From Bacteroidia bacterium (GTDB lineage Bacteria > Bacteroidota > Bacteroidia > UBA10329), in NCBI GenBank assembly GCA_047611425.1, contig JBLFWJ010000003.1:1-43969 (forward strand): DNA of 43,969 bases. Reading direction: 5' to 3'. Numbering within the stretch: position 1 is the stretch's first letter; the number at the start of each line of letters is the position of its first letter. A program made the position numbers and the translations under genes. The notes beneath the pieces were generated by a model. It did no database searches. It worked only from the letters and a program-made list of their open reading frames with translations, and was not told the origin of the DNA. Below are positions 248 through 31,708 of this stretch, in pieces.

Positions 248-868
248 ATGATTCCATTGCTTCCGGCAGCCTACTTCGCACCTATATCTTATTATGGCTA
301 TCTGGTTGAATCAAATTTTCAAGTTGGAATCAATGAAAACGAGCGATTTCAGAAGCAAACAATTAGAAATAGAGCTGAGATCCTTGGAGCTAACGGTAAG
401 ATTCGTCTCACCGTTCCATTAATTAAATGGTCCACTAAAGTTCCAACTAAAGAAATTCGAATTGATAATTCGTCCAACTGGAAACACGTGCATTGGATGT
501 CCATTCAATCGGCTTATAGGAATTCGGCTTTTTTCGAGCATTATGAAGACAAAATCAAGGCTTTTTTCATTGCAGATTATGAGCACTTAATTGACCTCAA
601 TATAGCTTCTTTGCAATTGGCAACAAGTCTATTAAATGCTGATTTATCAATTGAGAACATATCAGATTCTGACAATCTTGACAAAGCGTTATTCGAAGAC
701 TTAAAGTCAAAATTCATTAAGAAAAGACTGAATAAACCTTCCAAAACCTATCCCCAAGTTTTTAGTGATCGATTTGACTTCTTCGCTGATCTAAGCATCT
801 TAGATCTATTGTTCAATCTTGGGCCAAGAGCTTCAATTTACCTCCAAAATCAACACAAAATCAGCTGA
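248..868 (+). CDS. WbqC-like family protein
   Basis: Motifs FQKQTIRNR..I, LTVP, W..VHW.SI..AY..SAFF and LSILDLLFNLGP are typical of WbqC-like proteins. Confidence 0.85.
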   Translation: MIPLLPAAYFAPISYYGYLVESNFQVGINENERFQKQTIRNRAEILGANGKIRLTVPLIKWSTKVPTKEIRIDNSSNWKHVHWMSIQSAYRNSAFFEHYEDKIKAFFIADYEHLIDLNIASLQLATSLLNADLSIENISDSDNLDKALFEDLKSKFIKKRLNKPSKTYPQVFSDRFDFFADLSILDLLFNLGPRASIYLQNQHKIS

Positions 869-878
869 GGCTGATAGC

Positions 879-886
879 TATATTTG
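879..886 (+). promoter_or_regulatory. -7 promoter box (TATATTTG)
   Basis: TAnnTTTG consensus, 6 nt upstream of the ATG at 893. Confidence 0.55.
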
Positions 887-892
887 CGCCAT

Positions 893-2533: not shown

Positions 2534-2551
2534 TTACTGCCGCATTAATCT

Positions 2552-2578
2552 TAATTTTGAAACCCGATAGACTATCGG
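2552..2578 (+). promoter_or_regulatory. -7 box (TAATTTTG) followed by the palindrome CCGATAG-A-CTATCGG
   Basis: TAnnTTTG at 2552-2559; perfect 7-bp inverted repeat at 2564-2578, ending 3 nt before the wza ATG. Confidence 0.5.
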
Positions 2579-2581
2579 CCT

Positions 2582-3343
2582 ATGACCAACAGGTACATCC
2601 TCCTGCTCATTCTTCCAGTTCTGCTTTTGTCCTCGTGCGATAAGTACTTGAACAGACATATTATGATGCAAACTGGACCGTATTATCCTTATGGAGAATT
2701 CGATGACCGATCTGAGAGTGAGTATAGGCTTGCCGCAGATGACAAAGTGGCCTTTGAATTATATCCCAACAATGGTTTTTCTCTTATTGATGCAGCTTCA
2801 TCTGGCACCGCCATAAACCAAGCTGGCGTTAGACAACAAATCCTGATTGAGTTTGATGGTTTTATGAAATTGCCAAAGCTTGGTCGGACTTATATGGAAG
2901 GGCTCACCATTAGACAGGCAGAACTAGTGCTTGAAGACAAGTTTTCAGAATTCTATAATGAGCCATTTGTGCGCTTAACGGTGCAAAACAAACGTGTAAC
3001 TATTATTGCCGGTGGTAACAGTAAAGTTGTGACGCTTACAAATGAGAATACAACGTTGTTTGAAGCATTAGCTTCCGCAGGCGGAATTCCAAAAGATGGT
3101 TTAGCAAGTAAAGTAAAGCTAATACGGGGTGATTTACGAACTCCAGAAGTCTTTGTGCTAGATCTTTCCACCATGGATGGAGTGAAAGAAGCTAACCTTG
3201 TTCTTCAGGCTAACGACATCATTTATATCGAAACTAGGGTACGAGCTATTGAGAGAATTACAGAGATTATTACCCCTTACGCATCTTTGCTCTCCAGCTT
3301 CATCGTAACCTACTCGTTGATTAATACCATTGCGAACCGGTAA
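2582..3343 (+). CDS. wza: Polysaccharide export outer-membrane lipoprotein (Wza/OPX family)
   Basis: Lipobox LLSSC; Poly_export motif (YRL..DD, DG...LPKLG....GLT); SLBB motif TLFEALASAGG..; LQANDIIY. Directly upstream of wzc. Confidence 0.85.
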   Translation: MTNRYILLLILPVLLLSSCDKYLNRHIMMQTGPYYPYGEFDDRSESEYRLAADDKVAFELYPNNGFSLIDAASSGTAINQAGVRQQILIEFDGFMKLPKLGRTYMEGLTIRQAELVLEDKFSEFYNEPFVRLTVQNKRVTIIAGGNSKVVTLTNENTTLFEALASAGGIPKDGLASKVKLIRGDLRTPEVFVLDLSTMDGVKEANLVLQANDIIYIETRVRAIERITEIITPYASLLSSFIVTYSLINTIANR

Positions 3344-3344
3344 A

Positions 3345-5792: not shown

Positions 5793-5796
5793 GAAA

Positions 5797-6339
5797 ATGG
5801 AAATAACAAAAACTAAAATTGAGGACTTACTTGTATTAACACCGTGCGTTTTTAAGGATGATAGAGGATACTTTTTCGAATCCTTTAGCAAAAAAGTTTT
5901 TGGTCAAGCTGGAATAACTGCGGAGTTTGTCCAAACCAATGTCTCAATGTCCTGTAAGGACGTAATTCGTGGTTTACATTTTCAAAAGCCTCCATTTGCT
6001 CAAGGTAAACTGGTGAGCGTTTTGCGAGGAGCAGTTTTGGATGTCGCGGTGGATCTTCGAAAAAGCTCCCCGACATACGGGCAATATCATATCGAAGAAA
6101 TTAGCGAATACAATAAGAAGGTATTCTGGGTACCTCCTGGGTTTGCACATGGCTTTAGAACGCTAGAAGACAATACTCTGTTCCACTATAATTGTACTGC
6201 GGGCTACGACAAAGAATCCGAAGGTTCAATTCTCTGGAATGACCCAGATTTAGCTATTGATTTTGGAGATGTTTCCCCACATTTATCAGAGAAAGATAAA
6301 GTGGGAACTCTGTTTGCCGATTTCAATTCACCGTTTTAA
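5797..6339 (+). CDS. rfbC: dTDP-4-dehydrorhamnose 3,5-epimerase
   Basis: Motifs DDRGYFFESF, RGLHFQ, QGKLV, DVAVDLRKSSPTYG, PPGFAHGF, WNDPDLAI and LSEKD. Confidence 0.95.
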   Translation: MEITKTKIEDLLVLTPCVFKDDRGYFFESFSKKVFGQAGITAEFVQTNVSMSCKDVIRGLHFQKPPFAQGKLVSVLRGAVLDVAVDLRKSSPTYGQYHIEEISEYNKKVFWVPPGFAHGFRTLEDNTLFHYNCTAGYDKESEGSILWNDPDLAIDFGDVSPHLSEKDKVGTLFADFNSPF

Positions 6340-6377
6340 GGGAAAGTGGGTACCTTCGCGGCCCGCAAGGCCGAGCA

Positions 6378-7475
6378 ATGTTTCTTGACAATCCAACCAA
6401 TCTACTCATAGTTTACCTCGTTTTTGGGTTTTGTACTGTGCTGTTCTCGTTTTTGATTAACGGACTGTTTCTGAAATTTTCTCGCACACTTGGCGTGAAA
6501 GACCAAGAAGACAACTTAGTTCGTTGGAGCGCAACTTCTAAGCCTGCACTCGGAGGCATTTCATTCTACATACTTTTTCTTTTTGCCATTGCTTGCTACT
6601 CAATGCTTTTTGAAGCAGTCAGCTACATGAATAACGTAGTTCAATTTTTAGGAGTAATGGCTGCATGCTCTCTGGGTTTTGTAGTTGGACTAGCGGATGA
6701 TGCATACAATACAAAGCCCTTCTTGAAATTCTTCGCGCAATTTACTTGCGCAATAATCTTGATAAGCACTGGCACCTATATCAACATGAGTGGCTATCTG
6801 TTATTCGATTATTTCATAACTGTTTTTTGGATTGTTGGTCTTATGAATTCGATTAACATGATGGATAATATGGATGGAATAACCACCAGTCTATCCATCT
6901 CAATTGTTCTTGCAGGCCTATATGTTCTAATTACTAAACATCAAGTTCGCAGCATCTATTTCATCACTCTGGTTGGAGTCCTTTCTGGATTAATCGGTTT
7001 TCTGTACTATAATTGGAACCCAAGTAAAATGTACATGGGCGATTCTGGAAGCCAATTCTTAGGCGTGTTTCTGGCAGCCATAGGAATATTGTTTTTCTGG
7101 AATTTTAATTCTGCACCTGATTTTAGAATTCAAACTAGACAATTCATTATTCCACTTTTGATCTTCATTATTCCAATCATTGACACTACCACGGTTACCG
7201 TCAATAGATTGATGAGAGGGCAAAGTCCTTTTGTTGGAGGTAGGGACCACACTACCCACAACCTGTCCTACATGGGGTTATCAGATAGACAAGTTGCCCT
7301 AGCCTTTTTTGGACTATCAATGATGTCACTCGTTTTGTTGGTGGTAATTGACAAGTTCATTCCTCAGGATGTTTGGGATTACAAACATTTTGCACTTTTC
7401 CTTGGTTACTTCGTTTTACTGTTCGGTTTCCTTTTTGGAATTACGAAGATCAAAAGGGTTCCTAAAAAATCATGA
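6378..7475 (+). CDS. Undecaprenyl-phosphate HexNAc-1-P transferase (WecA/MraY-like family)
   Basis: Polytopic membrane protein with GLADD, NSINMMDNMDG, YNWNPSKMYMGDSGS, DT and DHTTH motifs. Confidence 0.85.
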   Translation: MFLDNPTNLLIVYLVFGFCTVLFSFLINGLFLKFSRTLGVKDQEDNLVRWSATSKPALGGISFYILFLFAIACYSMLFEAVSYMNNVVQFLGVMAACSLGFVVGLADDAYNTKPFLKFFAQFTCAIILISTGTYINMSGYLLFDYFITVFWIVGLMNSINMMDNMDGITTSLSISIVLAGLYVLITKHQVRSIYFITLVGVLSGLIGFLYYNWNPSKMYMGDSGSQFLGVFLAAIGILFFWNFNSAPDFRIQTRQFIIPLLIFIIPIIDTTTVTVNRLMRGQSPFVGGRDHTTHNLSYMGLSDRQVALAFFGLSMMSLVLLVVIDKFIPQDVWDYKHFALFLGYFVLLFGFLFGITKIKRVPKKS

Positions 7476-8521
7476 TTAAAAGAAAGTTCAGTGTATTAGT
7501 CGGCCTACTGGTCGTATTGGGGCTTGTTCAACTTTTCATTTTTAGCTCTGTTGAAAAAGGATCTGAGGACAAAGAGTACCAGCAGGCTTTCAACCAAGAC
7601 TATCGAATTTATACCCTCAATATCCCTGCGGATCTTGAGTTCTGTGGTGAGCAAATTCCTGTTCACGACATTGATATTCGGGAACGCTTAGACCGAGAGT
7701 TGTTGGTTAACACGTATTGGCAGAGTAACTCATTGCTGTACATAAAGCGCTCAAAAAAGTGGTTCCCAATCATTGAACCGATTCTTGCAGCCAACGGAAT
7801 TCCTGATGATTTCAAGTACTTGGCTTTAATAGAGAGCGGATTGACCAACGTGGTGAGCCCTTCTGGAGCAACCGGTTTTTGGCAATTGATGAAGGAGACG
7901 GGAAAAGAGTTTGGTTTAGAAGTAAACAAGGAAGTTGACGAACGGTACAACTTAACTCTTGCGACAAAGGCAGCGTGTAAATATTTAAAGCAAGCCTACA
8001 GCCGATACGGAAACTGGACCTTAGCAGCTGCTAGCTACAATATGGGCATGAACGGTGTAGACCGTCAGCTCAAGCGTCAGCAAGCAGATAGCTATTACGA
8101 TCTTTTGTTGAATTCCGAAACTTCACGTTATGTGTTTCGTGTAATTGCAGCAAAAGAGATTCTCACCAACACAACTAAATACGGATTCAGGTTCCGCGAA
8201 AAAGACCTCTACCCTACTCCACAGGTACAGTCCATCAAAGTGGATACCACAATTGACAACCTTGTGACCTTTGCCAAGGCGAATGATGTGAGCTATAAAA
8301 TTCTTAAAATCTTCAACCCGTGGTTGAGGCAAACCAATTTGCCTAATTCTTCAGGAAAGCAATATTCTATTGATTTTCCAACTGCAGGTTATTTCGATCA
8401 TCATAGTAATGGCCAAGAATTAAACCCAGCGTTTGTGGATAGCTTGGAATCGATTGCCGATTCCGTTATCGTTTACCCTACCGATACGCTTATCGCAGAA
8501 CCCAGTTCTGAGAATGAGTAA
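7472..8521 (+). CDS. Lytic murein transglycosylase (SLT/MltD-like), with a LysM-like C-terminal part
   Basis: YLALIESGL (catalytic Glu), SGATGFWQLM, VDER, AAASYNMG and ETSRYV; N-terminal TM segment. Confidence 0.88.
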   Translation: MIKRKFSVLVGLLVVLGLVQLFIFSSVEKGSEDKEYQQAFNQDYRIYTLNIPADLEFCGEQIPVHDIDIRERLDRELLVNTYWQSNSLLYIKRSKKWFPIIEPILAANGIPDDFKYLALIESGLTNVVSPSGATGFWQLMKETGKEFGLEVNKEVDERYNLTLATKAACKYLKQAYSRYGNWTLAAASYNMGMNGVDRQLKRQQADSYYDLLLNSETSRYVFRVIAAKEILTNTTKYGFRFREKDLYPTPQVQSIKVDTTIDNLVTFAKANDVSYKILKIFNPWLRQTNLPNSSGKQYSIDFPTAGYFDHHSNGQELNPAFVDSLESIADSVIVYPTDTLIAEPSSENE

Positions 8522-11375
8522 AAAGAAGTCGGGATTCGTTGCTCAGCCCTACTTGGAAGTGAATGGCGCTCGCGTTCACAACCTTAAGAATATTGACGTA
8601 AAAATTCCTCGATATAAACTAGTGGTAATCACTGGATTGAGCGGAAGCGGAAAATCCTCTTTAGCATTCGACACGATTTACGCTGAAGGACAAAGACGTT
8701 ATATAGAAACGTTTTCGGCCTATGCCCGTCAATTTATGGGCAATCTAGAACGGCCAGATGTAGACAACATTACAGGCCTAAGTCCAGTAATTAGCATAGA
8801 GCAAAAGTCTACCAATCGTAGCCCGAGATCTACGGTAGGAACAATTACTGAGATCTACGATTTATTCCGTTTGATGTACGCTCGGGCATCCATTGCCTAC
8901 AGCTACAACACTGATGAGCGTATGATCAAGCATACGGATGATGACATGCTTCAAATTCTGAAAGATGAATTTGAAGGCAAACGCATTATTCTGATGGCAC
9001 CGGTGATAAAAGGCCGAAAGGGACATTATCGCGAGCTTTTCGATCAATTCAGAAGACAGGGTTTTCAACGGGTTCGAGTTGATGGAGAAATTCTAGAATT
9101 GGACTCAGAGATTAAACTGGACAGGTACAAGGTTCATGATATTGAACTGGTTACAGATCGAGTTAAGGTTGATGAATCCAATCATAAAAGACTTCGCGAT
9201 TCTTTGAACTTGGCAATGAAGCATGGAAAGGGATCCCTCCTAATCCAGGACCATGAAACCGGTGAAACACGATTTTTGAGCCGAGCGTTGATGTGTCCAA
9301 CCTCAGGCATCGCCTATGATGAACCTCAACCTAATTTGTTTTCTTTCAATTCACCCTATGGTGCATGTCCAACCTGTAACGGGTTAGGAAACGTGTCGGA
9401 GATTGACAGAGAGAAGATCATTCCGAAAACCACGCTTTCTATTGCCCGTGGTGGCATTGCTCCTCTGGGAGAGCAAAAGAATACTTGGATTTTTCACCAA
9501 CTCGAGGCAATTGGTGATAAGTATGATTTCAAATTAAACACACCCATCAAGGATATTTCGGAAGAAGCTTTGAATGTGATCCTTCAGGGATCAAACGAAG
9601 TTTTCAAGGTGAAGCAGAGTGAAGGATCCACATCAAGCAATGTATCTCTGTCCTTTGAAGGAATTATGAGCTTTATCTCTCGCCAAGCGACAATGTCAGA
9701 CTCCGCTCGATTGGAAAAATGGGCTAAAGGATTTACCTCTAGGAAAGAGTGCGACAACTGCAATGGGGATCGGCTTAAAAAGGAATCACTCTACTTTAAA
9801 GTAGCAGATAAGAACATAGCCGAAGTCGCTAGAATGGATCTTCAAGCTTTGGGAGATTGGCTAGCCACGGTTGAAGAGAAACTGGATGAACGGCAATTGC
9901 TAATTGGTCATGAGATTTTAAAGGAAATTCAAACACGGCTGCAATTCTTACTAGATGTTGGGCTTGAATATTTGGCACTAGACCGACCAAGCCGATCACT
10001 TTCTGGTGGAGAAGCTCAAAGAATAAGATTGGCTACACAAATTGGTTCCGAATTAGTTGGTGTGCTCTACATCCTAGATGAACCAAGCATTGGATTGCAT
10101 CAACGAGATAATCAACGCTTAATTAAAGCATTGCAAAAACTACGTGACACGGGTAATTCCGTTATCGTGGTTGAGCATGACAAGGACATGATGATGGCTG
10201 CAGATCAGGTCATTGATCTTGGCCCAGGCGCTGGAATTCATGGTGGTGAGTTGGTTGGGCAAGATGTTGCCTCTGCCCTGCCCCATGAACGGTCTCTAAC
10301 CGCTGGTTACTTGAGTGGCGGAATGAGTATTCCATTTAGAAAGAAGCCTCGGAAAGGAACTGGAAAGTTCCTAACCCTCAAAGGTGCTACTGGCAACAAT
10401 CTCAAAAACGTTGACCTCAAACTTCCTTTAGGAAAGATGATTTGCGTTACTGGCGTTTCTGGAAGTGGAAAATCAAGCTTGATTAACAGCACCTTGCATC
10501 CAGTTCTATCCAACGAATTACATCGTGCGGAAAGACAATATCTTCCGTACAAAAAACTGGTTGGTCTTGAAAATCTAGACAAGGTAATTGGTATAGACCA
10601 AACTCCAATCGGACGAACACCTAGATCAAACCCAGCAACATATACAGGTGTGTTTTCGGATATACGCGCCCTATATGCTTCGTTACCTGAAGCACAGATT
10701 CGAGGGTACAAAGCAGGCCGGTTTTCTTTCAACGTAAAGGGTGGTCGATGTGAAGAATGCAGAGGTGCTGGTGTTCGAACCATCGAAATGAATTTCTTGC
10801 CAGATGTACATGTTCATTGTACAACCTGCAATGGCAGAAGATTCAATCGCGAAACACTTGAAGTTCGATTCAAAGGAAAATCGATTTCTGACTTGCTTGA
10901 TATGAACATTGAGCAAGCCATGGAATTCTTTGAAGGCATTCCAAGCATCCTTCGAAAGATTAGCACCATAAATGATGTTGGTCTTGGATACATCAGTCTA
11001 GGCCAGAGTTCCACAACCCTGTCTGGTGGTGAAGCACAGCGAATAAAGTTGGCTTCTGAACTGTCCAAGAAAGACACTGGTCAGACCCTTTACATTCTGG
11101 ATGAACCAACAACGGGCCTTCATTTCGAAGATGTTCGTGTTTTACTTGGTGTACTAGACAAACTTGCAGATCGCGGCAATACTGTTTTGATAATTGAACA
11201 TAATATGGATGTAATCCGCTCAGCAGACTACATCATCGATATCGGAAAAGAAGGTGGTGAGCGTGGTGGTGAAATAATTGCCCAGGGATCACCGTTAAAG
11301 GTTGCGACTGAGACAAATTCCTACACCGGTGTTTTTCTAAAAGAAGAATTCGATTCGTTAGGAATCAAAATCTAA
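8514..11375 (+). CDS. uvrA: Excinuclease ABC subunit A
   Basis: GARVHNLKN, two Walker A motifs ([18 protein letters not shown]), two LSGGEAQR signatures and CxxC zinc fingers. Start at ATG 8514. Confidence 0.97.
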
Positions 11376-11450
11376 TTGTTACGATTCTTCACTAACCTTG
11401 AACGCTAATTTGAGTACAATTGGCAATTCATTGATTTCAATATTTCCATC

Positions 11451-12161
11451 ATGACAGAAAAAGACAAGAGAATTCAACGTGCACTGAAAGAGAAAAGTTG
11501 GAACGAGATAAAGACGAACGATTCTTGGCAGATCTTTAAAATTATGAGTGAGTTTGTGGATGGTTTCGAGTCAATGGCTCGAATTGGTCCATGCGTTTCC
11601 ATTTTCGGATCAGCGCGTACAAAAGAGGATAACCCACATTATATCTTGGCTGAAGAAATCGCCTTCCACCTTGCCGAATTGGGCTTTGGAATTATTACCG
11701 GAGGAGGACCAGGAATTATGGAAGCAGGTAACAAAGGTGCTAATCGCGCAGGCGGTAAATCTGTTGGGTTGAACATAGACCTGCCTCACGAGCAATCATC
11801 CAATCCGTATATAGATCACGATAAAGACATCAATTTCGATTATTTCTTTGTTCGAAAATTGATGTTCATGAAATACGCTCAAGGATTTGTAGTACTCCCC
11901 GGGGGATTTGGAACCTTGGACGAATTGTTTGAAGCAATCACATTAATTCAAACGGGAAAAGTCGCACAGTTTCCTATTATTCTCGTTAGTTCGGAATACT
12001 GGAATGGTATGCTTGATTGGATAAAATCTACCATGCTTAGCCAAGAAGGAAACATCAGCCCTGAAGACTTAGACTTGATTACGGTTGTTGACACATGTGA
12101 AGAAGTATCCCAGGCTATCGACAATTTCTATTCTAAACACAAACTCAAGCCTAATTACTAG
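11451..12161 (+). CDS. LOG family (TIGR00730) nucleotide phosphoribohydrolase
   Basis: Motifs FGSAR, ITGGGPGIMEA, YFFVRK and PGGFGTLDELFE. Confidence 0.92.
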   Translation: MTEKDKRIQRALKEKSWNEIKTNDSWQIFKIMSEFVDGFESMARIGPCVSIFGSARTKEDNPHYILAEEIAFHLAELGFGIITGGGPGIMEAGNKGANRAGGKSVGLNIDLPHEQSSNPYIDHDKDINFDYFFVRKLMFMKYAQGFVVLPGGFGTLDELFEAITLIQTGKVAQFPIILVSSEYWNGMLDWIKSTMLSQEGNISPEDLDLITVVDTCEEVSQAIDNFYSKHKLKPNY

Positions 12162-12265: not shown

Positions 12266-13663
12266 ATGAGCATCAGAACTTTACTCTCTGCCCTATTCAT
12301 CTTTCTTTTTGTTTCAGGGTTTGCACAAGAATCTCCAGAAGGAGATGATGCGGTAACAACCGAGACAGAGACGGCCGAAAAGGAGCCTAAGGTCAAAAAG
12401 CCAAAGCCACCTTACTACGACCATAAATTGCCTTCAATTCAAATTAATGGTGGTAATCTTTCATTGTTGTCAGATGATATGGATAGCAAGAATCAACCTT
12501 TTGTAGGGGCCAATTTAAGATGGGCTTATGGTGCAAAAGTGGAATATCGTCCGTTGAACTATTTAGGCGTTTCACTTGGAGTTATGATGGGGTCAGTTGC
12601 AAATAAGCAGAGAGCCGGTAATCAATTCAACAATTACACGGTTGAAACTGACATTCTAAGTGCAGAATTCAACGTTATTATACCGCTTGATAATAATGTA
12701 ATCATAAACCGAGCAAGCAAATTTGCTCCATACCTTTTTGGAGGCGTAGCATATCAGTGGTTTAGCACAAAGGCCGATAATTATAGTTCAGACGGCAGAT
12801 ACTACCATTATTGGAGAGACGGTAATGTTTATGATCGAATCGAGGACATTGACCATTCCAATCGCAGAGAGCAACTTTCACATGACCAGAACTATGAAAC
12901 TCCTTTAAAAGAGGGATACGGTGATTCTGTTAGATATGATCGAGCTCAATTGGCTTTTCCTTTTGGACTTGGATTAAGATTCAAATTTTCCAATTCATTC
13001 TATGCCGACCTATCTGCTACATATTACTGGAGCATGTCGGATTACTTGGACAACTATAAATCTGATGAAGGAACCCAAACAGACCACATGCTGTACACCT
13101 CTGTGGGGTTTGGATACAACATTGGAGCCCGAAAGAAAAAACCGGATAGCACTCAGTTTGACCTAATTGACTTTAAGGCCCTGGATCAAGATGACGATGA
13201 TGGAGATGGCGTTAGAAACATGGAAGACCTGTGTGCAGGTACACCTCAGGGAACTGGAGTTGACGAAAAGGGTTGCCCAACTGACGAAGACAATGATGGG
13301 GTGCCTGATTACATAGACGATGAATCAGGTTCTGCAGAAGGTGCATTGGTTGATGCTAGAGGAGTGACCATTGGAGACGTGATACCAGGAACTGATACGT
13401 TAGCTGTTAAGCACAGTGTGGTTTATTTGGCCTACCCTAGCCAAAAATTCAAGCCAATGGGATCGATTTACAATACTGAATCGATAGAAGATGCAGGTAA
13501 TAGGTCAGCTGATTTAGGTGACTTTAAAGATGCCGATTACGATGGTGATGGTTACATCTCAAGTGAGGAAATCACGTTAGCAATTGATGCCTTCTTTGAA
13601 GGTGAGTTGGATTACTCAGCAGATAAACTGCATGATCTTATGGATTTCTTCTTCGATCAATAA
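12266..13663 (+). CDS. Outer-membrane beta-barrel protein (OmpA/PorG-like barrel) + TSP3-like Ca-binding repeats + C-terminal EF-hand/dockerin-like module (paralog 1)
   Basis: Signal peptide GFA-Q; alternating beta strands (PYLFGGVAY, FPFGLGLRF, SDYLD, YTSVGFGYNIG); DDDGDGV..DLC..TP..GCP.DEDNDGVPD; ends DADYDGDGYISSEE...LMDFFFDQ. Confidence 0.75.
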   Translation: MSIRTLLSALFIFLFVSGFAQESPEGDDAVTTETETAEKEPKVKKPKPPYYDHKLPSIQINGGNLSLLSDDMDSKNQPFVGANLRWAYGAKVEYRPLNYLGVSLGVMMGSVANKQRAGNQFNNYTVETDILSAEFNVIIPLDNNVIINRASKFAPYLFGGVAYQWFSTKADNYSSDGRYYHYWRDGNVYDRIEDIDHSNRREQLSHDQNYETPLKEGYGDSVRYDRAQLAFPFGLGLRFKFSNSFYADLSATYYWSMSDYLDNYKSDEGTQTDHMLYTSVGFGYNIGARKKKPDSTQFDLIDFKALDQDDDDGDGVRNMEDLCAGTPQGTGVDEKGCPTDEDNDGVPDYIDDESGSAEGALVDARGVTIGDVIPGTDTLAVKHSVVYLAYPSQKFKPMGSIYNTESIEDAGNRSADLGDFKDADYDGDGYISSEEITLAIDAFFEGELDYSADKLHDLMDFFFDQ

Positions 13664-13672
13664 TTAACTAAG

Positions 13673-14994
13673 ATGACAACCAGAAACATCTTTACTTGGT
13701 TGCTCTTGGTTTGCGCAAGACACTCCGTCAACTCATCTTCCTTCCAAAAAGGACTCACTCCGACTTGCACGCAAGACCTTTGAAAAGGAGAACGACATTA
13801 AAATGCCCCAGTTTGGTATTAGTGCGGGTGTTCTAAACTATTTTTGGTGAACCTGACCACAACGGACGGACCAATCCATTGGTTGTTAGTTATGGGGTCA
13901 ACGCAAGTATCATTCAGAATTTGAGTCCTTCCTTCGGATTGAAATCCGAGTACATGCATGCACGTCTTATATTTAATAAAGAGGACGGTCCGTCAAATAA
14001 TTTCTGAACGGACATTAACGCGGGATACGTCCAAATCTTCTACAACTTCGCAAGAATTCTCCCGCAAAATAGAATCCTGAACCCTTTTATTGCAATTGGT
14101 GTTGGCACCTTCAATTCCAAAGGAGATCTCAAGAGTGCAGAGGGATATCGATACTTCGAACATTCTGATGGTTCACTTTGGAGTTTACCAGAAGAATCTG
14201 AATTTTCGGATGATGCGGTTGATTTGGTTAGAGACCATGTATATGAATCGGATCTTCATGAAGAAAATATAGACGGATTAGGAAAATACAGCCAATTCGC
14301 CCTATCAGTTCCTGCAACATTCGGATTAAATTTTCAGATTTCTAATCGGGCAAGTCTTCAAGTTTCGTCCGCATTTCACTGGACTACAACAGATCTCATA
14401 GATAACATTAGTTCAAAAGGGGATGATAAAAACGACATGATTCTTTACAATTCCATCTCATTCTTTTACGATTTCCTCTCTCCAAAAAAAACTAGGAAGA
14501 GTAATTACAATCAGGTCGAATTCTTCAGCCTAGAAGGTGATGGAGATGGGGTTAAAGATTTCGAAGATTTATGTCCATACACACCAAAAGGTTCGCCAGT
14601 ATCAACAATTGGTTGTGCCCTTGATGGAGATGAAGTACCTGATAATCTAGATAAGGAGTTGACTTCCAACCCAGATTTACCAGTAAACAAAGATAGTGTT
14701 TCTATAAAAGATAGTCTGAAAGTAACTATAGCCTCGGATTCAGTGGCCACTAAACACGAAGTTCGGTACTTGGTTTATCCGGGTATGGCAGAAATGTACG
14801 CGGTGAAAAGAACCGGAAACTCACATCAAACGGCCATCAATCTTACCGGTTATCAGCAATTTGATTTGGATAAAGATGGATTCCTTAGCGTTGCAGAAGT
14901 ACATTCTGCAATCGATAAATTCTTCGAAGGAGAAATGCCAGAATTAACTGCTACAGACCTTGCTGGACTGATTGACCACTTCTTCGATCAATAA
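13673..14994 (+). pseudogene. Degraded paralog 2 of the barrel/TSP3/EF-hand family
   Basis: ATG at 13673; frameshift near 13710 (FAQDTP...KMPQFGISAGVLNYF lies in another frame); second frameshift in the T5 run at 13841-13845; in-frame TGA at 14005-14007; then open to 14994 with family motifs (SKGDLK, SDG, RDHVYESDL, TDLIDN, DLDKDG...LIDHFFDQ). Confidence 0.85.
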
Positions 14995-15042
14995 AAAAAA
15001 GATAATACCTTTAGCCGCTTAACAATCAAGACCTTAGTACCT

Positions 15043-16161
15043 ATGAACTTTAGGAATATAACCAGTTTCTTCGTGATAGTAATGGTGCTTGCAGTAACAA
15101 CTGCACAAGCCCAAGTTAGTGTTACTACTAACCTTCCTGCGAGTGCAGCTCCAGGCAGTCAATTTCTAGTCGAGCTAACAGTAACTAAACCTGGAGTAAC
15201 TGGGTTTGCCAAATTGGAGCAAAGCCTCCCTACTGGTTTTGAAGCTTCGGCCGGACAAACAGCTAACGCAACATTCTCCTTCAAAGACAGAAAGGTTAAG
15301 TTTTTATGGATGGCACTTCCTAATGGAGACACATTTACCGTCTCTTATAAAGTGCAAGTAGATGCTTCATTGAGTGGTAACCAAATACTTGAAGGAAAAT
15401 TCGCTTACATAAAGGACAACGCTACGGAGAAGTATATTCTTCCAAAAGACATTATAGCTGTTGGTGCAGATCCGGCTGCCGCAGCTGAAGCTCAGGCTTT
15501 AGCTTCTATCGAAGCAGATGCCAAAGCAAAAGAAGATGCTGATGCAGCCGCTCGTGAAGCAGCTGCAGAATCTGAAGCCACAGCAGAAGAGGTGGTTGAA
15601 GAAACACCTGAAGTCGTTGAGGAAGTAGCCGAAGAAGTTGCTGAAGTCGTTGAAGTCGTTGAAGTGGTTGAAGAAGTTGACAACAGCGCTGCCGAGGCAG
15701 AAGTTGCTGCTGCTGAAGAAGCTGACAGACAAGCAAAAGAGGCTGAACTGGAAAGACTAAGAACTGAAAAAGCTTCAAGAGAAGCTGAAGCAGCCGCAAT
15801 TAAGGCAGCAGAACCCGTTGCAGTAGAAGTAGCTCCTACCAAGGAAGCCGCTCCAAATTACAATGATGCGATGCTTCAAAGCAAAGCAGGATTAGTTTTC
15901 CGAGTTCAAGTATCAGCAGGGCCAAATCAAGTAGATCCAGCAGTTGTAGCGAGCAAGCTAGGTTTAACCGAAACTGTAATGTTGGAAGAGAATGAGGGCA
16001 TGTTCAAGTATGTCGTTGGTGAGTTCGGAAGCTACAGACCTGCTAAAACTTTCTCCAACTCACTTAGAGATAATAATGGTGTTGACGGTCCTTTTGTTAC
16101 TGCCTATAAAGATGGATCTAGAATTCACGTTAAGGAAGCACTTGACATGGCAGGTCAATAA
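15043..16161 (+). CDS. Secreted protein: N-terminal beta-sandwich (cohesin/Ig-like), Ala/Glu/Val-rich linker, C-terminal SPOR-like domain
   Basis: Signal AQA-Q; LPASAAPGSQFLVELTV..LPTGF..TVSYKV..LEGKFAY; low-complexity linker; FRVQVSA...FKYVVGEFGSY..A...LR..GV.GPFVTAYKDG.RI. Confidence 0.7.
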   Translation: MNFRNITSFFVIVMVLAVTTAQAQVSVTTNLPASAAPGSQFLVELTVTKPGVTGFAKLEQSLPTGFEASAGQTANATFSFKDRKVKFLWMALPNGDTFTVSYKVQVDASLSGNQILEGKFAYIKDNATEKYILPKDIIAVGADPAAAAEAQALASIEADAKAKEDADAAAREAAAESEATAEEVVEETPEVVEEVAEEVAEVVEVVEVVEEVDNSAAEAEVAAAEEADRQAKEAELERLRTEKASREAEAAAIKAAEPVAVEVAPTKEAAPNYNDAMLQSKAGLVFRVQVSAGPNQVDPAVVASKLGLTETVMLEENEGMFKYVVGEFGSYRPAKTFSNSLRDNNGVDGPFVTAYKDGSRIHVKEALDMAGQ

Positions 16162-16189
16162 ACGCGCAAAAAAAACACAGACATTGACA

Positions 16190-16219
16190 TGACCTGGGCT
16201 TTGTCCCGGGTTATTTTTT
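16190..16219 (+). terminator. Probable Rho-independent terminator
   Basis: GACCTGGG / CCCGGGTT stem (with G-U pairs) followed by ATTTTTT, about 30 nt after the stop at 16161. Confidence 0.6.
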
Positions 16220-16246
16220 ACCTTGAACTTTCGTAAATCGGAATTG

Positions 16247-17863
16247 ATGTTGCGCAGATCGTGGTTAATTCTTCCATTTTTAATTAGCTGTTGTATCAGT
16301 TATGGCCAAGTAGTAGAGTCTGAGAATGATTCTTCCTTTAAAACTATACAGCTACCCATGTTCGACCTAGGTTTTGGCTGGTCATTTCTTATGGGTGATA
16401 TAGGAAACACTTCTCCTGCGCCAAGTTCGGCATTACAATTCTCCTACGGATTGAGTATCCGCCAGGCAATAATGCCGTATCTCTCTGTTTCAATCGACTT
16501 TAGCACTGGGAAATTTTATGGGGAAAAAGCCTTGGGAGATACGGAAAATCTAAATTTTCAAACATCTGTAATCAGCCAAGGACTTCAGTTCACATACGAG
16601 GCTTCCCACTTATTTAATAGGAATAACAAAGGATTTGTTCAATACCAGCCTTATGTTGGCATCGGTGTAGGATTAATCTCATTCCGAGCAAAGGGTGACC
16701 TAAAAGATGGGAACTTGAATACCTACAATTATTGGAGCGATGGAACAATCAGAAGTTTGCCAGAAACACCAAATAATGTAGACCTCGCAGAAGTAATATC
16801 GCGAGATTTGGTATATGAGTCTGACTTACGTGACGCAAACTTGGACGGATTTGGACGCTACGATCAAATGGCCTTGAGAATACCAATCGAACTTGGTTTT
16901 AGATACCAATTCACCAAACGAATTGGAGCACACATCAAAGGCATTTACAATCTGAATTTTACCGATCTGTTGGACAACGTAACATCTGAAAGTCTGGGTG
17001 ATCGGCAAGCAAACGCTGATAATGATAACCACCTGTCGGCAATGATGGGCGTAAGTGTTTATTTGGGGGAATATCGAAAGCCAAAGAAAAAGAAACGAGA
17101 ACCTATGCCTGCCCTCTTAGCGGAGGAAGATTTAGATTCAAATAATCAAGAGGTTGATCCAATTCAAGACTCCATTTCCAACCTGGCTGTTGTTTCAGTA
17201 AACAACGATAATCAGGATTCAGATAGTAAAGAAGAAAGTTCTAATTACTCTAAAAACCTTGACTCCGAGGCCATTACTAGTTCGGAATATGGAGCTAAGA
17301 ATGTGGAAGACGTTGGTCAGGTTGATGAAGCTATGCTTGGGAATGAATCAGCTTCAACTAAAAACGAAATTGATAAATCCGCCTCCAATAAATCAACGGG
17401 TGAGTCAAACACCGATATTTTGAGTCAGATAGAAATTACCGAGAATCAATATAGCCTATCTGTCGATTCTAACTCCCAAAATGAAAGCAGCGAGTCTTCT
17501 AAGAATGCTACCATAGATCAATCTGAAGTCGGAGAACCGAGTAGTGCTATTTCGGATAGCTCTACCTCAAGCACGACCAACGACAACTCCATAGAAAACA
17601 CTATTGCTCAACCTAATAGTATTTCTAAAAAAGAGCAAAGAACGAATGAGTTAACAACGTTTGACCTGATTGAAAAAACGATGGGGATTGGGTCAACTGA
17701 GCCTAAAATTGCTGGTCGCTTTCATTGGGCTGATGTTAATACGGACAAATACATTTCTGCCGATGAGGTGTTACACTTCATAGACCTCTTATTTGACGGG
17801 GAATCTGAGTACACCCTACCAATGATTCACGAGTTGATTGAGTACTATTTTGACCAAGATTGA
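16247..17863 (+). CDS. Outer-membrane barrel paralog 3, with a long Ser/Asn/Glu-rich disordered linker and C-terminal EF-hand/dockerin-like module
   Basis: Signal SYG-Q; FLMGDIG, AKGDLKDG..YNYWSDG, RDLVYESDLR, TDLLDNV; linker of roughly 200 aa; ends ADVNTDKYISADE...LIEYYFDQD. Confidence 0.75.
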   Translation: MLRRSWLILPFLISCCISYGQVVESENDSSFKTIQLPMFDLGFGWSFLMGDIGNTSPAPSSALQFSYGLSIRQAIMPYLSVSIDFSTGKFYGEKALGDTENLNFQTSVISQGLQFTYEASHLFNRNNKGFVQYQPYVGIGVGLISFRAKGDLKDGNLNTYNYWSDGTIRSLPETPNNVDLAEVISRDLVYESDLRDANLDGFGRYDQMALRIPIELGFRYQFTKRIGAHIKGIYNLNFTDLLDNVTSESLGDRQANADNDNHLSAMMGVSVYLGEYRKPKKKKREPMPALLAEEDLDSNNQEVDPIQDSISNLAVVSVNNDNQDSDSKEESSNYSKNLDSEAITSSEYGAKNVEDVGQVDEAMLGNESASTKNEIDKSASNKSTGESNTDILSQIEITENQYSLSVDSNSQNESSESSKNATIDQSEVGEPSSAISDSSTSSTTNDNSIENTIAQPNSISKKEQRTNELTTFDLIEKTMGIGSTEPKIAGRFHWADVNTDKYISADEVLHFIDLLFDGESEYTLPMIHELIEYYFDQD

Positions 17864-17897
17864 ATTTGACTATTTTTGATCGGTTGTGAACAAGCCT

Positions 17898-19781
17898 ATG
17901 AAAAGACCCCTACTCCTCACCTTGCTCCTCATTGTACCAATGATTTCCTTAGTTCTGGAAGTCAATGGACAAACTCCCGAAGAGCTGTATTACAAAGATG
18001 ACAGTGGCCGTGATGCTCTATTCAAACCAAGAGTTGGACTTGGCACGGGCATATTCACTTTCTTTGGTGATGTTAATGACGACAATCGACTACACCCGTT
18101 TACCAGTAGTTTGGGATACGAATTTGTTGCTTCAGCCAATTTATCAAGGTATTTCAATCTTAATTTGAAAGCGATTTACGGGAATATAAAAATCAACGAA
18201 CGAGGAAAAGAAATTGAAGGATTTGATGAAAAGCGTAACCTCAATTTCAAATCAGAAATGTTTTTGGGAGGAGTTGATGTTAGTTACAACTTCAACCATC
18301 TATATAATAAACCTGGTATAATACAGCCTTTTGTGTCAGCTGGTGTGGCCTTTTTAAGCTTTGATACAAAGAGCGATCTTAGGGATTCACGAGGTATATC
18401 CTATCATTATCATAGTGATGGACTGATTAGTGACATTAGTGAGGAAGAAGCACGCGAACTGCAGATTGATGCGCCAGAGGTTCTTCGGGATTACACGTAT
18501 GAAACGGACCTAAGAAAAGAAGACCTTGATTCGTTAGGAAAGTACAATACATTTTCATTTGCAATTCCTGTTTCTTTAGGAATCGATTTTCGATTGAGTA
18601 GAAGGGTCAGTGCAAAATTCAGCAGCACATTCTACTACACATTTACTGATAACATAGACAACGTATCTTCGGAAAGTTCAGGAATTCGTCAAGGCAATAA
18701 GGCCAATGACATGTTTCTATTCACTTCGCTTAGCGTAAGTTACGCACTGGGATCAAACAAAAAGTCTGTTAAGGCCAACAAAACGAAGTATTTTCAAGGA
18801 ACAAACTTTACCGCGTTATATTTTGACGATTCTGATGGAGATGGCGTAAATGATTTTGACGACCTCTGTGCCAAAACCCCAGATGGCGCTAAAGTTGATG
18901 CGTTTGGTTGCGCTTTGGATTCAGATATTGATGATATCCAGAATTATCGAGATGACGAAGAATCTACACCGCAAGGAAATATCGTAACAACTCGTGGAGT
19001 CACACTTACAGATAGTATGATGCTGGCCTCATACATAGATTCTGCGGCACTAAAAAGATCCTTAATCCCTCAAATTTATCCATCTGGTGTATTGAGCATT
19101 AACCCGCCTCTTTCACCAGAAGATTCGACCATGTTAGCTGATACCAGAATTCGCTTACAATCGGAGATTGAGTCGAATAGCGACCTTGATCTGGTGTTCA
19201 AAGCGATTGAAGATGAGGTAAATAAGATGGACTTCTCAGAAGCTACAGACCCTGCAGAAGTCTATGCTAAAGCTGAGCAGGTATATTCCAAAATGGTTAA
19301 GAATAAAACCATAGAGCCAACGGCCCCAATGGCCATTACAACTGAGCCAGCCAAACCATCTATAATTCCTCCAGAATATGTGGAGGCTGACTACAATGGT
19401 GATGGTATACTTACCTCTGATGAAGTATTGAGAGTGATTGATGCCATTCTGGAAGGAGGTTCTTCATTTACAGTTGCACAAGTTCTTGGTATTATTGATT
19501 ACGCCACGGAGTATATGGACACCGCGAAGGTGGTCGATTTCGGAGGTACTTATGGTGTCTACATTGACAATTCACTGCATATTTTGAATGACTATGGCGA
19601 TGGACGTTCTAATTCTCAGCGATATTTAGCAAAGAAATACTCTGCAGTAGATGCAAATGGTGATGGCATCCTTACTCCTAACGAGGTGAACGATATGATT
19701 GCCAGATTCCAAAATGGTGATACCAACTATACAGAAACACAGATTTACGATTTGATCAACCTTTTCTTTGAAGAAGAATAA
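17898..19781 (+). CDS. Outer-membrane barrel paralog 4, with TSP3-like repeats and two EF-hand/dockerin-like modules
   Basis: Signal VNG-Q; FFGDVN, YHYHSDG, RDYTYETDLR, TDNIDNV; DSDGDGVND..DLC; ADYNGDGILTSDE and DANGDGILTPNE...LINLFFEEE. Confidence 0.75.
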   Translation: MKRPLLLTLLLIVPMISLVLEVNGQTPEELYYKDDSGRDALFKPRVGLGTGIFTFFGDVNDDNRLHPFTSSLGYEFVASANLSRYFNLNLKAIYGNIKINERGKEIEGFDEKRNLNFKSEMFLGGVDVSYNFNHLYNKPGIIQPFVSAGVAFLSFDTKSDLRDSRGISYHYHSDGLISDISEEEARELQIDAPEVLRDYTYETDLRKEDLDSLGKYNTFSFAIPVSLGIDFRLSRRVSAKFSSTFYYTFTDNIDNVSSESSGIRQGNKANDMFLFTSLSVSYALGSNKKSVKANKTKYFQGTNFTALYFDDSDGDGVNDFDDLCAKTPDGAKVDAFGCALDSDIDDIQNYRDDEESTPQGNIVTTRGVTLTDSMMLASYIDSAALKRSLIPQIYPSGVLSINPPLSPEDSTMLADTRIRLQSEIESNSDLDLVFKAIEDEVNKMDFSEATDPAEVYAKAEQVYSKMVKNKTIEPTAPMAITTEPAKPSIIPPEYVEADYNGDGILTSDEVLRVIDAILEGGSSFTVAQVLGIIDYATEYMDTAKVVDFGGTYGVYIDNSLHILNDYGDGRSNSQRYLAKKYSAVDANGDGILTPNEVNDMIARFQNGDTNYTETQIYDLINLFFEEE

Positions 19782-19791
19782 AAACAAAAAA

Positions 19792-21609
19792 ATGAAAGCA
19801 CCATTACTTTTCTCCCTTTTCATTATTGGGACACTAACTGGCGGTTCCGCCCTGGCCCAGGATAAGCCAGATGTGAAAAAAGCAACGGATTCACCAAAAG
19901 TTGAATCTGAAGCGAAAACGGAACCAATAAAAACCAGTTCAAACGTGAAAAGCTATGCTCCACATGAGTTTAAGCTAAACGTTCATGCCGGTGGAGGGTT
20001 TAATCTTTTTATGGGTGATATTGCAGACAATGCATCTACTAACGTGCACCGAATTGGTAATCGGTTTGCATATCACTTTGGAATTGGAGCTACGTTAACT
20101 CCATGGCTCGATTTAAACGCGAACGTAATTATTGGCCGTTTAAACGGTAATGAGCGAAGCCATGAAGAAGGCGAATTGTGGAAAAACAGAAACTTCGAAG
20201 CCAAGACTTTTGCAGCAGGACTGGAACTCTCCTACAATTTTAAAAACATTGGATTTTTTCGAGATCCACGGGTAATGGTGCCATTTGTGGGTGCCGGTGC
20301 ATATTTTAGTACGTATGATGTATACATAGATAAGAAAGTTGATTCTACTGGTGATAAATACCACTATTGGTCTGATGGCCGAATTATGTCTGAAGAGGAA
20401 GATAATCTCATTTCAGATAACGCTCAACCAATAGTTCGAGATTTCCTTTACGAATCTAAGGAGGCTGACTCTCCTGTAAAAGCGTTGGCCATACCTGTTT
20501 TCGGAGGTTTTGATTTCAACATAGATCGCAACTGGGCCTTCCGTTTAAAGGCGGCATATTTCTTCACATTAACTGACGCAATAGATGGATATGATGATCC
20601 TCAGCATTCAGATAATTTGGATGGCTATTTCTACACTTCGGCCAGCGTATTTTTCAAATTCAATCCATTTAAAAAACGAGCGGCTAAAGGCGAAGTACCT
20701 TTAGAATATGTTGGTGATTTTGGTCCATTAATTAATGAGGATACAGATAAGGATGGAGTTGTTGATTTTCTTGATAAATGCAACGGTACACCAACAGGTG
20801 TCACAGTAAACTCCGATGGTTGTGCACTTGATAGCGATAATGATGGAATTCCAGACTACAGAGATAATCAGAAAAACACCGTGGCAGGATACATTGTAGA
20901 CGAGCATGGAGTAGCAATCAGTTACAAAAATATCTATGAAGAATTCCAAAAGGACACTTTCTCTATTCTAAGAAGAAACGAGTGGTTATACTCTCAACCC
21001 GAAAAGGATCCTCAGTACACGGTACATGTTGGAACGTTCACTAATTACGATATTCCAACTCAATTGAAAATGAAATTGAGTTCCATAAGCGGGTTAGTTG
21101 AAAGAAATATTAACGATAGCGTGTCTGTTTTTACCCTTGGATCATTCAACAATTTTGAGGCCGCAGAAGCAAAACAAAACCAGTTGATTAAATCTGGAAT
21201 CGATCAAGCTTTTGGGGTCAATGAAAATGCCATTAAGAGGGTTGCTGACGATATGAAGGAACTTAGAGTGTCAGATCCGATCTTTTCTCAGGGTGCTAGA
21301 ACAGAAAAAGAACCAGATATCCTTAATTATGGTGTTGAATTAAAGGAATACAGATTGAGGTTAGACATAAACAGGTTGTCATCAGTAATTGCCAAGTATG
21401 GTGTAGAAATGAGATCGACCCCTGGTGGCATTAAAATCTATCGAATTGGTTCTTTCAATCATTTTGACGAGGCTGAAAAACTTAGAAAAAGTGTCGCAAA
21501 ATTGGGTGTTAAAAACCCTCAAATCAGTCCACGCTTGAATGACCGACCAATTGATGTTGATAAGGCTAAAGAGCTCGAATCAACTATCAATCCTCAGGAA
21601 GAAAAGTAA
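19792..21609 (+). CDS. Outer-membrane barrel paralog 5, with TSP3-like repeats and two SPOR-like domains
   Basis: Signal ALA-Q; FMGDIA, YHYWSDG, RDFLYES, TDAIDG; DTDKDGV.D..DKC..TP..GCALDSDNDGIPD; YTVHVGTF...LGSFNNFEAAE and YRIGSFNHFDEAEKLR..LGV. Confidence 0.75.
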   Translation: MKAPLLFSLFIIGTLTGGSALAQDKPDVKKATDSPKVESEAKTEPIKTSSNVKSYAPHEFKLNVHAGGGFNLFMGDIADNASTNVHRIGNRFAYHFGIGATLTPWLDLNANVIIGRLNGNERSHEEGELWKNRNFEAKTFAAGLELSYNFKNIGFFRDPRVMVPFVGAGAYFSTYDVYIDKKVDSTGDKYHYWSDGRIMSEEEDNLISDNAQPIVRDFLYESKEADSPVKALAIPVFGGFDFNIDRNWAFRLKAAYFFTLTDAIDGYDDPQHSDNLDGYFYTSASVFFKFNPFKKRAAKGEVPLEYVGDFGPLINEDTDKDGVVDFLDKCNGTPTGVTVNSDGCALDSDNDGIPDYRDNQKNTVAGYIVDEHGVAISYKNIYEEFQKDTFSILRRNEWLYSQPEKDPQYTVHVGTFTNYDIPTQLKMKLSSISGLVERNINDSVSVFTLGSFNNFEAAEAKQNQLIKSGIDQAFGVNENAIKRVADDMKELRVSDPIFSQGARTEKEPDILNYGVELKEYRLRLDINRLSSVIAKYGVEMRSTPGGIKIYRIGSFNHFDEAEKLRKSVAKLGVKNPQISPRLNDRPIDVDKAKELESTINPQEEK

Positions 21610-31372: not shown

Positions 31373-31708
31373 TTATTGAATTACATGTCGGCAATTTCTT
31401 CCCTTGGTATCTAGCATTACAGATAACCTACCTGTGGTTCCTCGGAACTCTTGTAAAGGTATTCGTAATTCAGCATACTCCGGATGCCTGAGAACTACGT
31501 AACCAAAAACCTCTTCGAAAGAATCTTCCAATTCGATTTTAAAATCGCCTGACTCGCTGGTTGTGGCCTTCTTATCAAAGCCAGAAACCGAAATCTCAGT
31601 TCCTCTGACTGGCTGCCCCAGAAGATTCATTACCACCCCTCTAATTTCCTGTCCTTGTGCGGTAAATCCAACCATCAAGAAAAAAAAGACTGTCCAGATT
31701 TTTCTCAT
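31373..31708 (-). CDS. Small secreted protein, carboxypeptidase-regulatory-like fold
   Basis: Signal AQG-Q; IRGVV....GQPV.G..ISV......TT..SGDF.I. Stop is coupled between its two neighbours. Confidence 0.6.
   Translation of the reverse strand: MRKIWTVFFFLMVGFTAQGQEIRGVVMNLLGQPVRGTEISVSGFDKKATTSESGDFKIELEDSFEEVFGYVVLRHPEYAELRIPLQEFRGTTGRLSVMLDTKGRNCRHVIQ

Follow-up and report, generated by a model that had tools for sequence, protein, structure and literature searches.

How the outer membrane is attached to the cell wall in Bacteroidota, and how it constricts at division, is poorly known in comparison with Proteobacteria. The closest described systems are the OmpA-family tethers, some Bacteroidota forms of which carry TSP3 repeats; envelope proteins with a C-terminal SPOR domain, such as RlpA, FtsN, DamX, DedD and CHU2221 of Cytophaga; the T9SS (type IX secretion system) proteins PorG and PorE; the OmpM/SlpA tethers of Terrabacteria; and the cohesin–dockerin pair of the cellulosome. 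RlpA is anchored in the outer membrane, and TSP type 3 repeats bind Ca. Here, we analyze six reading frames at positions 12266–21609 of a 43,969-nt stretch of Bacteroidia DNA (contig JBLFWJ010000003.1 of assembly GCA_047611425.1; the whole stretch is hereafter called the window). They comprise five paralogous outer-membrane barrel genes (par1–par5) and one central gene without a barrel. For the domain types concerned, three publications name the SPOR domain of RlpA (PMC6895207), describe PorG as an 8-stranded outer-membrane barrel (PMC12365241) and report that a Cytophaga SPOR domain binds denuded glycan with a Kd of 0.8 µM and is septal in E. coli (bioRxiv 10.1101/2022.07.01.498525).

All six reading frames lie on the + strand with a spacing of 10–60 nt, and par4 and par5 overlap by 14 nt. 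The original prediction, made from the DNA alone, had described five co-oriented barrel paralogs surrounding one non-barrel gene; the positions and the strand hold, but par2 is a broken copy. We consider that the locus is probably a lineage-specific expansion of a conserved Bacteroidia cassette that ties the outer membrane to peptidoglycan. The core of this cassette would have three parts: (i) a PorG-like 8-stranded barrel with a periplasmic tail that carries TSP3 Ca repeats and ends in a duplicated EF/F-hand module of ~42 aa; (ii) a secreted periplasmic protein composed of one or two DUF11-like Ig sandwiches, a low-complexity linker of 100–170 aa and a SPOR domain; and (iii) a barrel, again of this family, to which two or three SPOR domains are directly fused. 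The barrel–SPOR protein would act as a direct tether and the barrel–module protein as an indirect connection. Because the wall-binding domains are of the SPOR type, they would target denuded glycans at the division septum, and it is by analogy with characterized SPOR domains that we infer septal glycan binding in the cassette. From the even number of barrel strands and the homologous position of SPOR, we likewise infer that the tails are periplasmic.

The distribution of the genes shows how widely this arrangement is conserved. Among 401 Bacteroidia genomes, the sandwich was found in 204, i.e., about half of those sampled, and the module in 118; 115 genomes contain both, three only the module (G007, G013 and G132), 89 only the sandwich and 194 neither. 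These tallies include the unpublished genome G115, on which no claim is based alone. In the 111 genomes of at least 90% completeness, for which every match was listed, the corresponding numbers are 61 for the sandwich, 43 for the module and 42 for both, and in 35 of the 43 module genomes a module on the same strand as the sandwich ends 85–352 bp upstream of it. Within the GTDB order of the window, the module is present in all 24 genomes and the sandwich in 21, with the same gene order; the three sandwich misses are fragmented assemblies. A phylum-wide sample of 151 genomes contained the sandwich in only four, all of the same class and including the genome of the window itself. Gene order extends to distant families as well. 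Loci from three of them (L053, L054 and L055) show, in order, a LOG-family gene, a barrel–module gene, a gene for two sandwiches and SPOR, and a barrel gene with two or three SPOR domains. In three loci of sandwich-only genomes (L057, L058 and L059), the order is LOG, sandwich–SPOR and barrel–SPOR, the barrel–module gene being absent, and another genome, G030, carries two barrel–module genes at a separate locus. The complementary domain distribution that had been proposed for the window thus extends to adjacent module–barrel and sandwich–SPOR pairs across many Bacteroidia families, and the proposed co-occurrence and synteny were both found on this larger scale. Module-bearing barrels that are common without the adaptor, which would have spoken against the proposal, were not seen, as the module occurs alone in only 3 of the 118 module genomes. 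The functional link between the module and sandwich genes is real.

Judged by sequence profiles, the barrels of the window are homologues of PorG but not PorG equivalogs. Only par4 (17886–19781, 631 aa) exceeds the cut-off of the Pfam family DUF6089, with 40.2 bits; the Pfam matches of the other barrels lie under the cut-off. Against the NCBIfam equivalog model T9SS_PorG (NF052316, cut-off 130 bits), the five barrels score 35.8, 27.8, 39.9, 81.4 and 41.3 bits in order, whereas the true PorG of the same genome, encoded on another contig, scores 184.6 bits; the possibility that the barrels are PorG itself was rejected on these grounds. Homology is clear from hhalign, by which an alignment of the par1 family matches the genome's own PorG with a probability of 99.2 and an E-value of 2.6e-19 over 208 columns, i.e., the whole PorG barrel. 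The barrel of par1 (12266–13663, 465 aa) is followed by two TSP3-like motifs, as is that of par5 (19768–21609, 613 aa), and the barrel of par4 by one. No TSP3 motif is present in par3 (16223–17863, 546 aa), which has a long low-complexity linker rich in Ser, Asn and Glu in that place; an alternative ATG of par3 at 16247 gives a cleaner signal peptide. At E ≤ 1, the Pfam families OmpA, SPOR and LysM have no match on the barrel proteins except for SPOR on par5, so the earlier statement that paralogs 1–4 lack a peptidoglycan-binding domain is upheld, and the OmpA_C profile (PF00691) matches none of the six window proteins at the same threshold.

The relationships among the barrels were assessed in a tree of 49 rows built from the first 330 residues. 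The sequences were drawn from 51 phmmer matches in the window and 21 chosen loci; the tree is confined to these loci and rooted by midpoint only. In this tree, par1 groups with the single barrel–module genes of distant families (support 100/99). The par2, par3 and par4 types group with the barrel–SPOR genes and par5 in a set of 35 rows (support 100/99), apart from the par1 clade. On this phylogeny, par1 is the orthologue of the single barrel–module gene of distant families. Since module-bearing types are nested with barrel–SPOR genes, the tree also indicates that the lineage of the window multiplied its barrels and exchanged SPOR and the module on one scaffold.

The wall-binding side of the cassette is represented in the window by par5 and the central protein. 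By profile, par5 contains no module, as predicted, and its C-terminus carries two tandem SPOR-like domains (about 21013–21321 and 21322–21606). The SPOR assignment of this earlier claim rests on homology to P0123, with which par5 is 31% identical (E 5e-54) and which scores 54.2 bits against SPOR (PF05036); par5 itself reaches 18.5 bits, short of the 21-bit cut-off. The central gene (15043–16161, 372 aa) encodes, in agreement with the original prediction, a signal peptide, one Ig-like sandwich (15109–15480), a long linker (135 aa, rich in Ala, Glu and Val) and a SPOR-like domain (15886–16158), and no barrel. This last domain has no Pfam match itself and only 3 of 49 members of the central family match SPOR at E ≤ 0.01, but the orthologue in L054 matches the full SPOR profile with 28.5 bits and, by hhalign, can be aligned with the central family over its whole length (probability 100). 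A six-frame SPOR search of the window gave no match. The window proteins are therefore labeled SPOR-like because homologous orthologues of the cassette pass the SPOR cut-off (28.5, 54.2 and 60.1 bits), and not by their own scores.

The module that ends paralogs 1–4, with two copies in par4, had been recognized as a unit of about 45 aa and proves to be ~42 aa long. Its five copies, at 13505–13660 (par1), 14833–14991 (par2, still readable despite the lesions of this gene), 17699–17860 (par3), and 19359–19514 and 19617–19778 (par4), share invariant D, D, E, I and G residues when aligned. A profile made from them retrieves the same five copies in the genome at E-values of 4e-28 to 7e-25 (3.4e-25 for that of par1) plus one degenerate copy on another contig. 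All five copies have matches among the Pfam EF-hand families (PF13202, PF00036, PF13405 and PF13499); that of par1 exceeds the EF-hand_5 cut-off (26.6 versus 25.9 bits), and the others fall below. In searches of PDB sequences, the best 60 of 438 matches of the module profile and the best 60 of 143 matches of the par1-family profile are all EF-hand proteins. Calmodulin, EhCaBP and polcalcin are named among the module matches listed, and the longest span covers the EF-hand pair of calmodulin. The module is an internal tandem duplication, in which the Ca loop and helix of the first 22 residues align with the next 20 residues. In an hhalign comparison of the two segments from 34 sequences, the score was 21.7 (probability 89), a value reached by none of 200 column shuffles (mean 7.9, sd 2.4). 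The canonical loop D-x-[DN]-x-[DN]-G-x-I-S-x-x-E occurs in segment 1 only; in segment 2 the last loop position varies by class (K, Y or D), and an acidic residue is not conserved there. The copy of par1 has this design, with a Ca loop and helix, a degenerate repeat and the ending LMDFFFDQ. By its sequence, therefore, the module is an EF/F-hand that was duplicated internally and has kept one Ca loop intact.

Comparison of tails from the different paralogs shows both constant and variable positions. In 51 of 54 distinct tails, residues D1, I8, S9, E12, I17, D18, F21, G23, L35, I36, D37, F40 and Q42 are common to all classes, and positions 13, 14, 16, 20, 38 and 39 are fixed within a paralog class and different between classes. 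Conservation within each class is strong, and the par1-type tails are nearly invariant.

The original prediction had taken the module for a candidate dockerin and the sandwich for its candidate cohesin. A true cohesin–dockerin pair, i.e., a diverged dockerin and cohesin with the same origin and way of binding as the cellulosomal modules, would explain why the module consists of two tandem loop–helix segments of ~22 and 20 residues, which matches the duplicated F-hand layout of type I dockerins as given in PMC4728124. The dockerin-like layout is thus confirmed by the duplication, and the shape of the module recalls duplicated dockerin F-hands, although a degenerate EF-hand pair fits the sequence equally well. 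Homology is another matter. None of the five modules matches Dockerin_1 (PF00404) at E ≤ 10, and a six-frame search of the genome with this profile gave no match in the window at E ≤ 1. A search of representative sequences with the module profile returned 20351 matches at E ≤ 0.001, the best 150 of which are mostly multi-EF-hand repeats matching the loop only; about a dozen of these 150 are full C-terminal modules, 10 of which were scanned with Pfam. Dockerin_1 was marginal in two of these 10 distant proteins (23.0 and 20.3 bits; the cut-off is 22.9), but EF-hand families outscore it in every case, in the window modules and the distant proteins alike. Some feature-based neighbours in the ESM Atlas at 0.81 are clusters with Dockerin_1; such low scores serve as leads only. 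The second module loop is degenerate, and the module aligns with calmodulin EF-hand pairs. The identification of the module as a dockerin homologue was consequently abandoned in favor of the EF-hand families.

The sandwich argues in the same direction. Among proteins of comparable length, the central protein has 143 relatives at E ≤ 0.001, almost all of them from uncultured Flavobacteriales or other Bacteroidia and of the same architecture. An alignment of 49 members shows strong conservation at both ends, in the N-terminal sandwich and in the C-terminal domain; the sandwich is conserved far above the linker, which spans 102–172 residues rich in Ala, Glu and Lys. The sandwich, a single copy in the genome of the window, has no Pfam match above the cut-off, and below it only bMG10 (19.2 bits) and a pilin Ig family are found. 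Weak matches of 46 diverse copies are distributed over pilin Ig (14), bMG10 (10), DUF11 (9, best E 1.7e-5) and BatD (4), with a single Cohesin match (E 0.044). In the genome of the window, the Cohesin profile (PF00963) has no match at E ≤ 1. An ESM Atlas model of the central protein (whole-protein pLDDT 0.62) has DUF11/CARDB neighbours with TM values of 0.75–0.81, and no cohesin-named entry is found among the ten neighbours listed. Nothing relevant came from searches of PDB sequences, whether made with the central family or with the sandwich by itself, which had no match at E ≤ 10. By its profile matches and predicted fold, the sandwich looks like an Ig domain of the DUF11/CARDB type rather than a cohesin; DUF11, CARDB, bMG10 and pilin Ig domains stand closest to it in sequence and structure. 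We therefore do not retain the claim of cohesin homology and regard a true cohesin–dockerin pair as highly improbable. A pairing of module and sandwich, if there is any, would be a functional analogue of cohesin–dockerin and not a homologue.

The module is not restricted to the cassette barrels. A protein of 849 aa from G030 (locus L063, G030:C64, 1370–3916) ends in the module and contains TPR, WD40-like, CarboxypepD_reg and OmpA (88 bits) domains; it scores 333 bits against CHU_0125_OmpA and 310 bits against T9SS_PorE, both below the cut-offs. Reading frames of about 850 aa with the module recur in other Bacteroidia. Other module-ended proteins are a 306-aa protein, a 196-aa lipoprotein and, in the family to which the window belongs, proteins of 757 and 847 aa. 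The last two are adjacent in L109 (G006:C10) and similar loci of the family, where neither shows a Pfam domain beyond the two modules that each carries; the genome of the window, 91% complete, yielded no counterpart. On contig C148 of this genome (L012, 499–1623), two adjacent paralogous lipoprotein-like genes encode proteins of 176 and 196 aa, neither with a Pfam family. A degenerate module is present on the 196-aa protein only, with the Ca loop lost (hhalign probability 92). The window also encodes, at 31705–33729 on the − strand, a 673-aa OmpA-family protein similar to PorE and CHU_0125 (232 and 220 bits, below the cut-offs) without the module, and paralogs of this kind are numerous in the genome (23 matches).

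The kinship with PorG and PorE raises the question of whether the cassette is a T9SS accessory, whose tag would gather parts of the secretion system rather than serve a septal tether. The barrels do match T9SS_PorG with up to 81 bits, and the TPR, WD40, CRD and OmpA order of the 849-aa module protein is the order given for PorE in PMC12773672. However, all the barrels are below the PorG cut-off, the genome has its own PorG elsewhere, and the PorE-like module protein fails the cut-offs of both PorE and CHU_0125. Furthermore, the cassette contains no secretion-system gene, its fixed neighbours being uvrA and the LOG-family gene. A role as a T9SS accessory is thus improbable.

Within the tether cassette, the module would be a Ca-dependent protein-interaction tag, for which the neighbouring sandwich–SPOR protein is the leading candidate partner. 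This idea is put forward because the genes adjoin, because module genomes lie nearly all within the sandwich genomes and because SPOR and the module were swapped on the same scaffold. Even so, docking of the module on the sandwich is offered only tentatively. More broadly, the duplicated F-hand module might be a periplasmic Ca-dependent tag that plugs varied envelope proteins, such as PorG-like barrels, PorE/CHU_0125-like OmpA proteins and small lipoproteins, into the sandwich of a SPOR-anchored septal adaptor, a possibility that we also view with some doubt. A complex prediction of the sandwich (residues 23–146), Ca and par1 residues 400–465, made with alignments, gave ipSAE values of 0.09 and 0.08 against a mark of 0.32; run with no controls, it speaks neither for nor against binding.

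It may instead be that the same cassette exists with no docking on the sandwich, the module being a Ca-binding structural or regulatory tail or pairing with another module, and the sandwich–SPOR protein working with barrel–SPOR or another envelope component. Lone EF-hands usually pair with one another, and the presence of two modules per chain in par4 and many relatives makes intrachain pairing possible. The TSP3 repeats next to the module bind Ca too. Moreover, sandwich–SPOR and barrel–SPOR occur together in every inspected cassette, even where the barrel–module gene is missing. This alternative has to accommodate the tight adjacency of the barrel–module and sandwich genes and the presence of the sandwich in nearly all module genomes, and the strong conservation of the module in each class, nearly complete in the par1 type, points to a specific partner and not to a generic Ca site. 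We hold the alternative to be less likely than not, though by no means remote.

Several observations weigh against the tether cassette and, above all, against docking, and some of them favor this alternative directly. The module is absent, as far as detectable, from 89 of the 204 sandwich genomes (19 of 61 in the 111-genome sample); therefore, the sandwich needs another role or partner. It is present on a PorE/CHU_0125-like protein with its own OmpA domain, in addition to the 306-aa, 196-aa and 757/847-aa proteins, and so cannot be read simply as replacing a wall-binding domain. The six module positions that are class-specific make its surface a property of each paralog although the lineage has one sandwich, which would be odd for shared docking. 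G132, complete by markers, shows a LOG gene, a barrel–module gene and next an unrelated gene; even by profile, no sandwich turned up in its assembly of 480 contigs. The SPOR-like domains of the window are themselves below the Pfam cut-off (par5) or without a match (central protein). Lastly, the co-occurrence counts make the support look stronger than it is, since kindred genomes are not independent of one another; the pair nonetheless recurs in many families. The sandwich has not been found fused to a barrel or a module among the longer proteins searched, a blank that is weak evidence; only two longer sandwich proteins (660–663 aa) were found, each with an extra Ig-like domain and SPOR. Collectively, the 'split OmpA' of the original prediction, in which interchangeable barrels dock on a shared SPOR adaptor, stands as regards complementary domains, adjacency (35 of 43) and co-occurrence (115 of 118), and is weakened by the sandwich genomes that lack the module, by the OmpA-bearing module protein and by the class-specific module surfaces.

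The second paralog of the window, par2 (13674–14994), is a pseudogene of a barrel–module gene, with two frameshifts and an in-frame TGA at 14005–14007. Intact par2 orthologues of 448–462 aa from related genomes align to 13600–15050 in two frames and across this TGA; the start codon is in a third frame, and the further frame shift lies within the signal peptide. Over the lesions, contigs of four other sequencing runs agree letter for letter and contain no indels. This population thus truly carries the lesions, and assembly error was rejected as their cause. Public runs with a high share of 13400–16300 are labeled as ice metagenome, and those with a small share as seawater or sediment. At 15631–15727, within the repetitive Glu/Val-rich part of the central linker, where short contigs of other origin accumulate, the summed contig depth rises about threefold in all four runs.

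Between the central gene and par3, a weak terminator-like hairpin lies at 16189–16214 on the + strand (10-bp stem followed by a T run). Its folding energy is −14.2 kcal/mol (z −1.43), and 16 of 200 shuffles fold equally well; it may partially split the locus into two transcription units. Scans for sigma-70 promoters and terminators did not rise above the shuffled expectation, Bacteroidota promoters being outside the model of that scan, and the window has no Rfam match. The cassette is preceded by genes for an SLT lytic transglycosylase, uvrA and a LOG-family protein and followed by a fatty-acid hydroxylase and a YhhN gene. The LOG-family gene (11451–12161, + strand) is the conserved upstream neighbour in distant families too. 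With uvrA, it forms a fixed upstream block (8433–12161 in the window) across distant families, also in L053, L057–L059 and L108. The transglycosylase gene (7472–8521) is located directly before uvrA. The upstream stretch 248–8521 comprises a surface-polysaccharide block with WbqC-like, Wza-like exporter, Wzz/tyrosine kinase, dTDP-sugar epimerase and GT4 genes and, after it, this transglycosylase gene.

The cassette joins barrels to SPOR domains directly and possibly through an adaptor. If the module is indeed a portable C-terminal tag common to several envelope proteins, it would represent a new principle for organizing the periplasm and an experimental handle in Flavobacterium and Cytophaga. 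If it docks on the sandwich, the pair would be an independently evolved periplasmic counterpart of cohesin–dockerin and a new coupling of outer-membrane constriction to division in Bacteroidia. NCBI product names for the cassette are "hypothetical protein", "outer membrane beta-barrel protein" and "SPOR domain-containing protein". The literature search turned up neither an account of the cassette nor one of a plug-and-socket tether in the periplasm, although the proteins may already be listed in supplementary proteome tables of papers on the outer membrane or on type IX secretion; the earlier statement that no such system was known agrees with this result.

Among known systems, OmpA-family tethers, including the TSP3 forms of Bacteroidota, resemble the cassette in design: both have an N-terminal 8-stranded barrel, a periplasmic TSP3-like tail and, in par5, a wall-binding end. 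They differ in that the cassette barrel is of the PorG/DUF6089 type, the wall domain is SPOR rather than OmpA_C, and the EF/F-hand module takes the place of the wall-binding end in four paralogs. With RlpA, FtsN, DamX, DedD and CHU2221, the cassette shares a C-terminal SPOR domain on an envelope protein. Yet, its anchor is a β-barrel and not a lipid or an inner-membrane helix, and two or three SPOR copies are found per chain, those of the window scoring below the Pfam cut-off. The relation to PorG and PorE is one of homology and of shared parts: the barrels are PorG homologues, and proteins with their domains in a PorE-like order end in the module in other Bacteroidia. The cassette nevertheless stays below the equivalog cut-offs, and the PorG profile (209 positions) has neither a TSP3 nor an EF-hand tail.

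The OmpM/SlpA tethers likewise join a barrel to a wall domain (SLH) in one chain, but the barrel family, the wall domain and the phylum differ, and no separate adaptor protein is known from them. The cellulosomal cohesin–dockerin pair is comparable in having a short C-terminal Ca-loop module, made of a duplicated loop–helix pair and encoded here beside a β-sandwich gene, and in the plug-and-socket logic proposed. In contrast, the cassette matches neither profile, its second Ca loop is lost, its sandwich is DUF11/CARDB-like, and its predicted location is periplasmic instead of extracellular. Taken together, the cassette appears undescribed: its parts are known domain types, and it is their combination and reach that are new.

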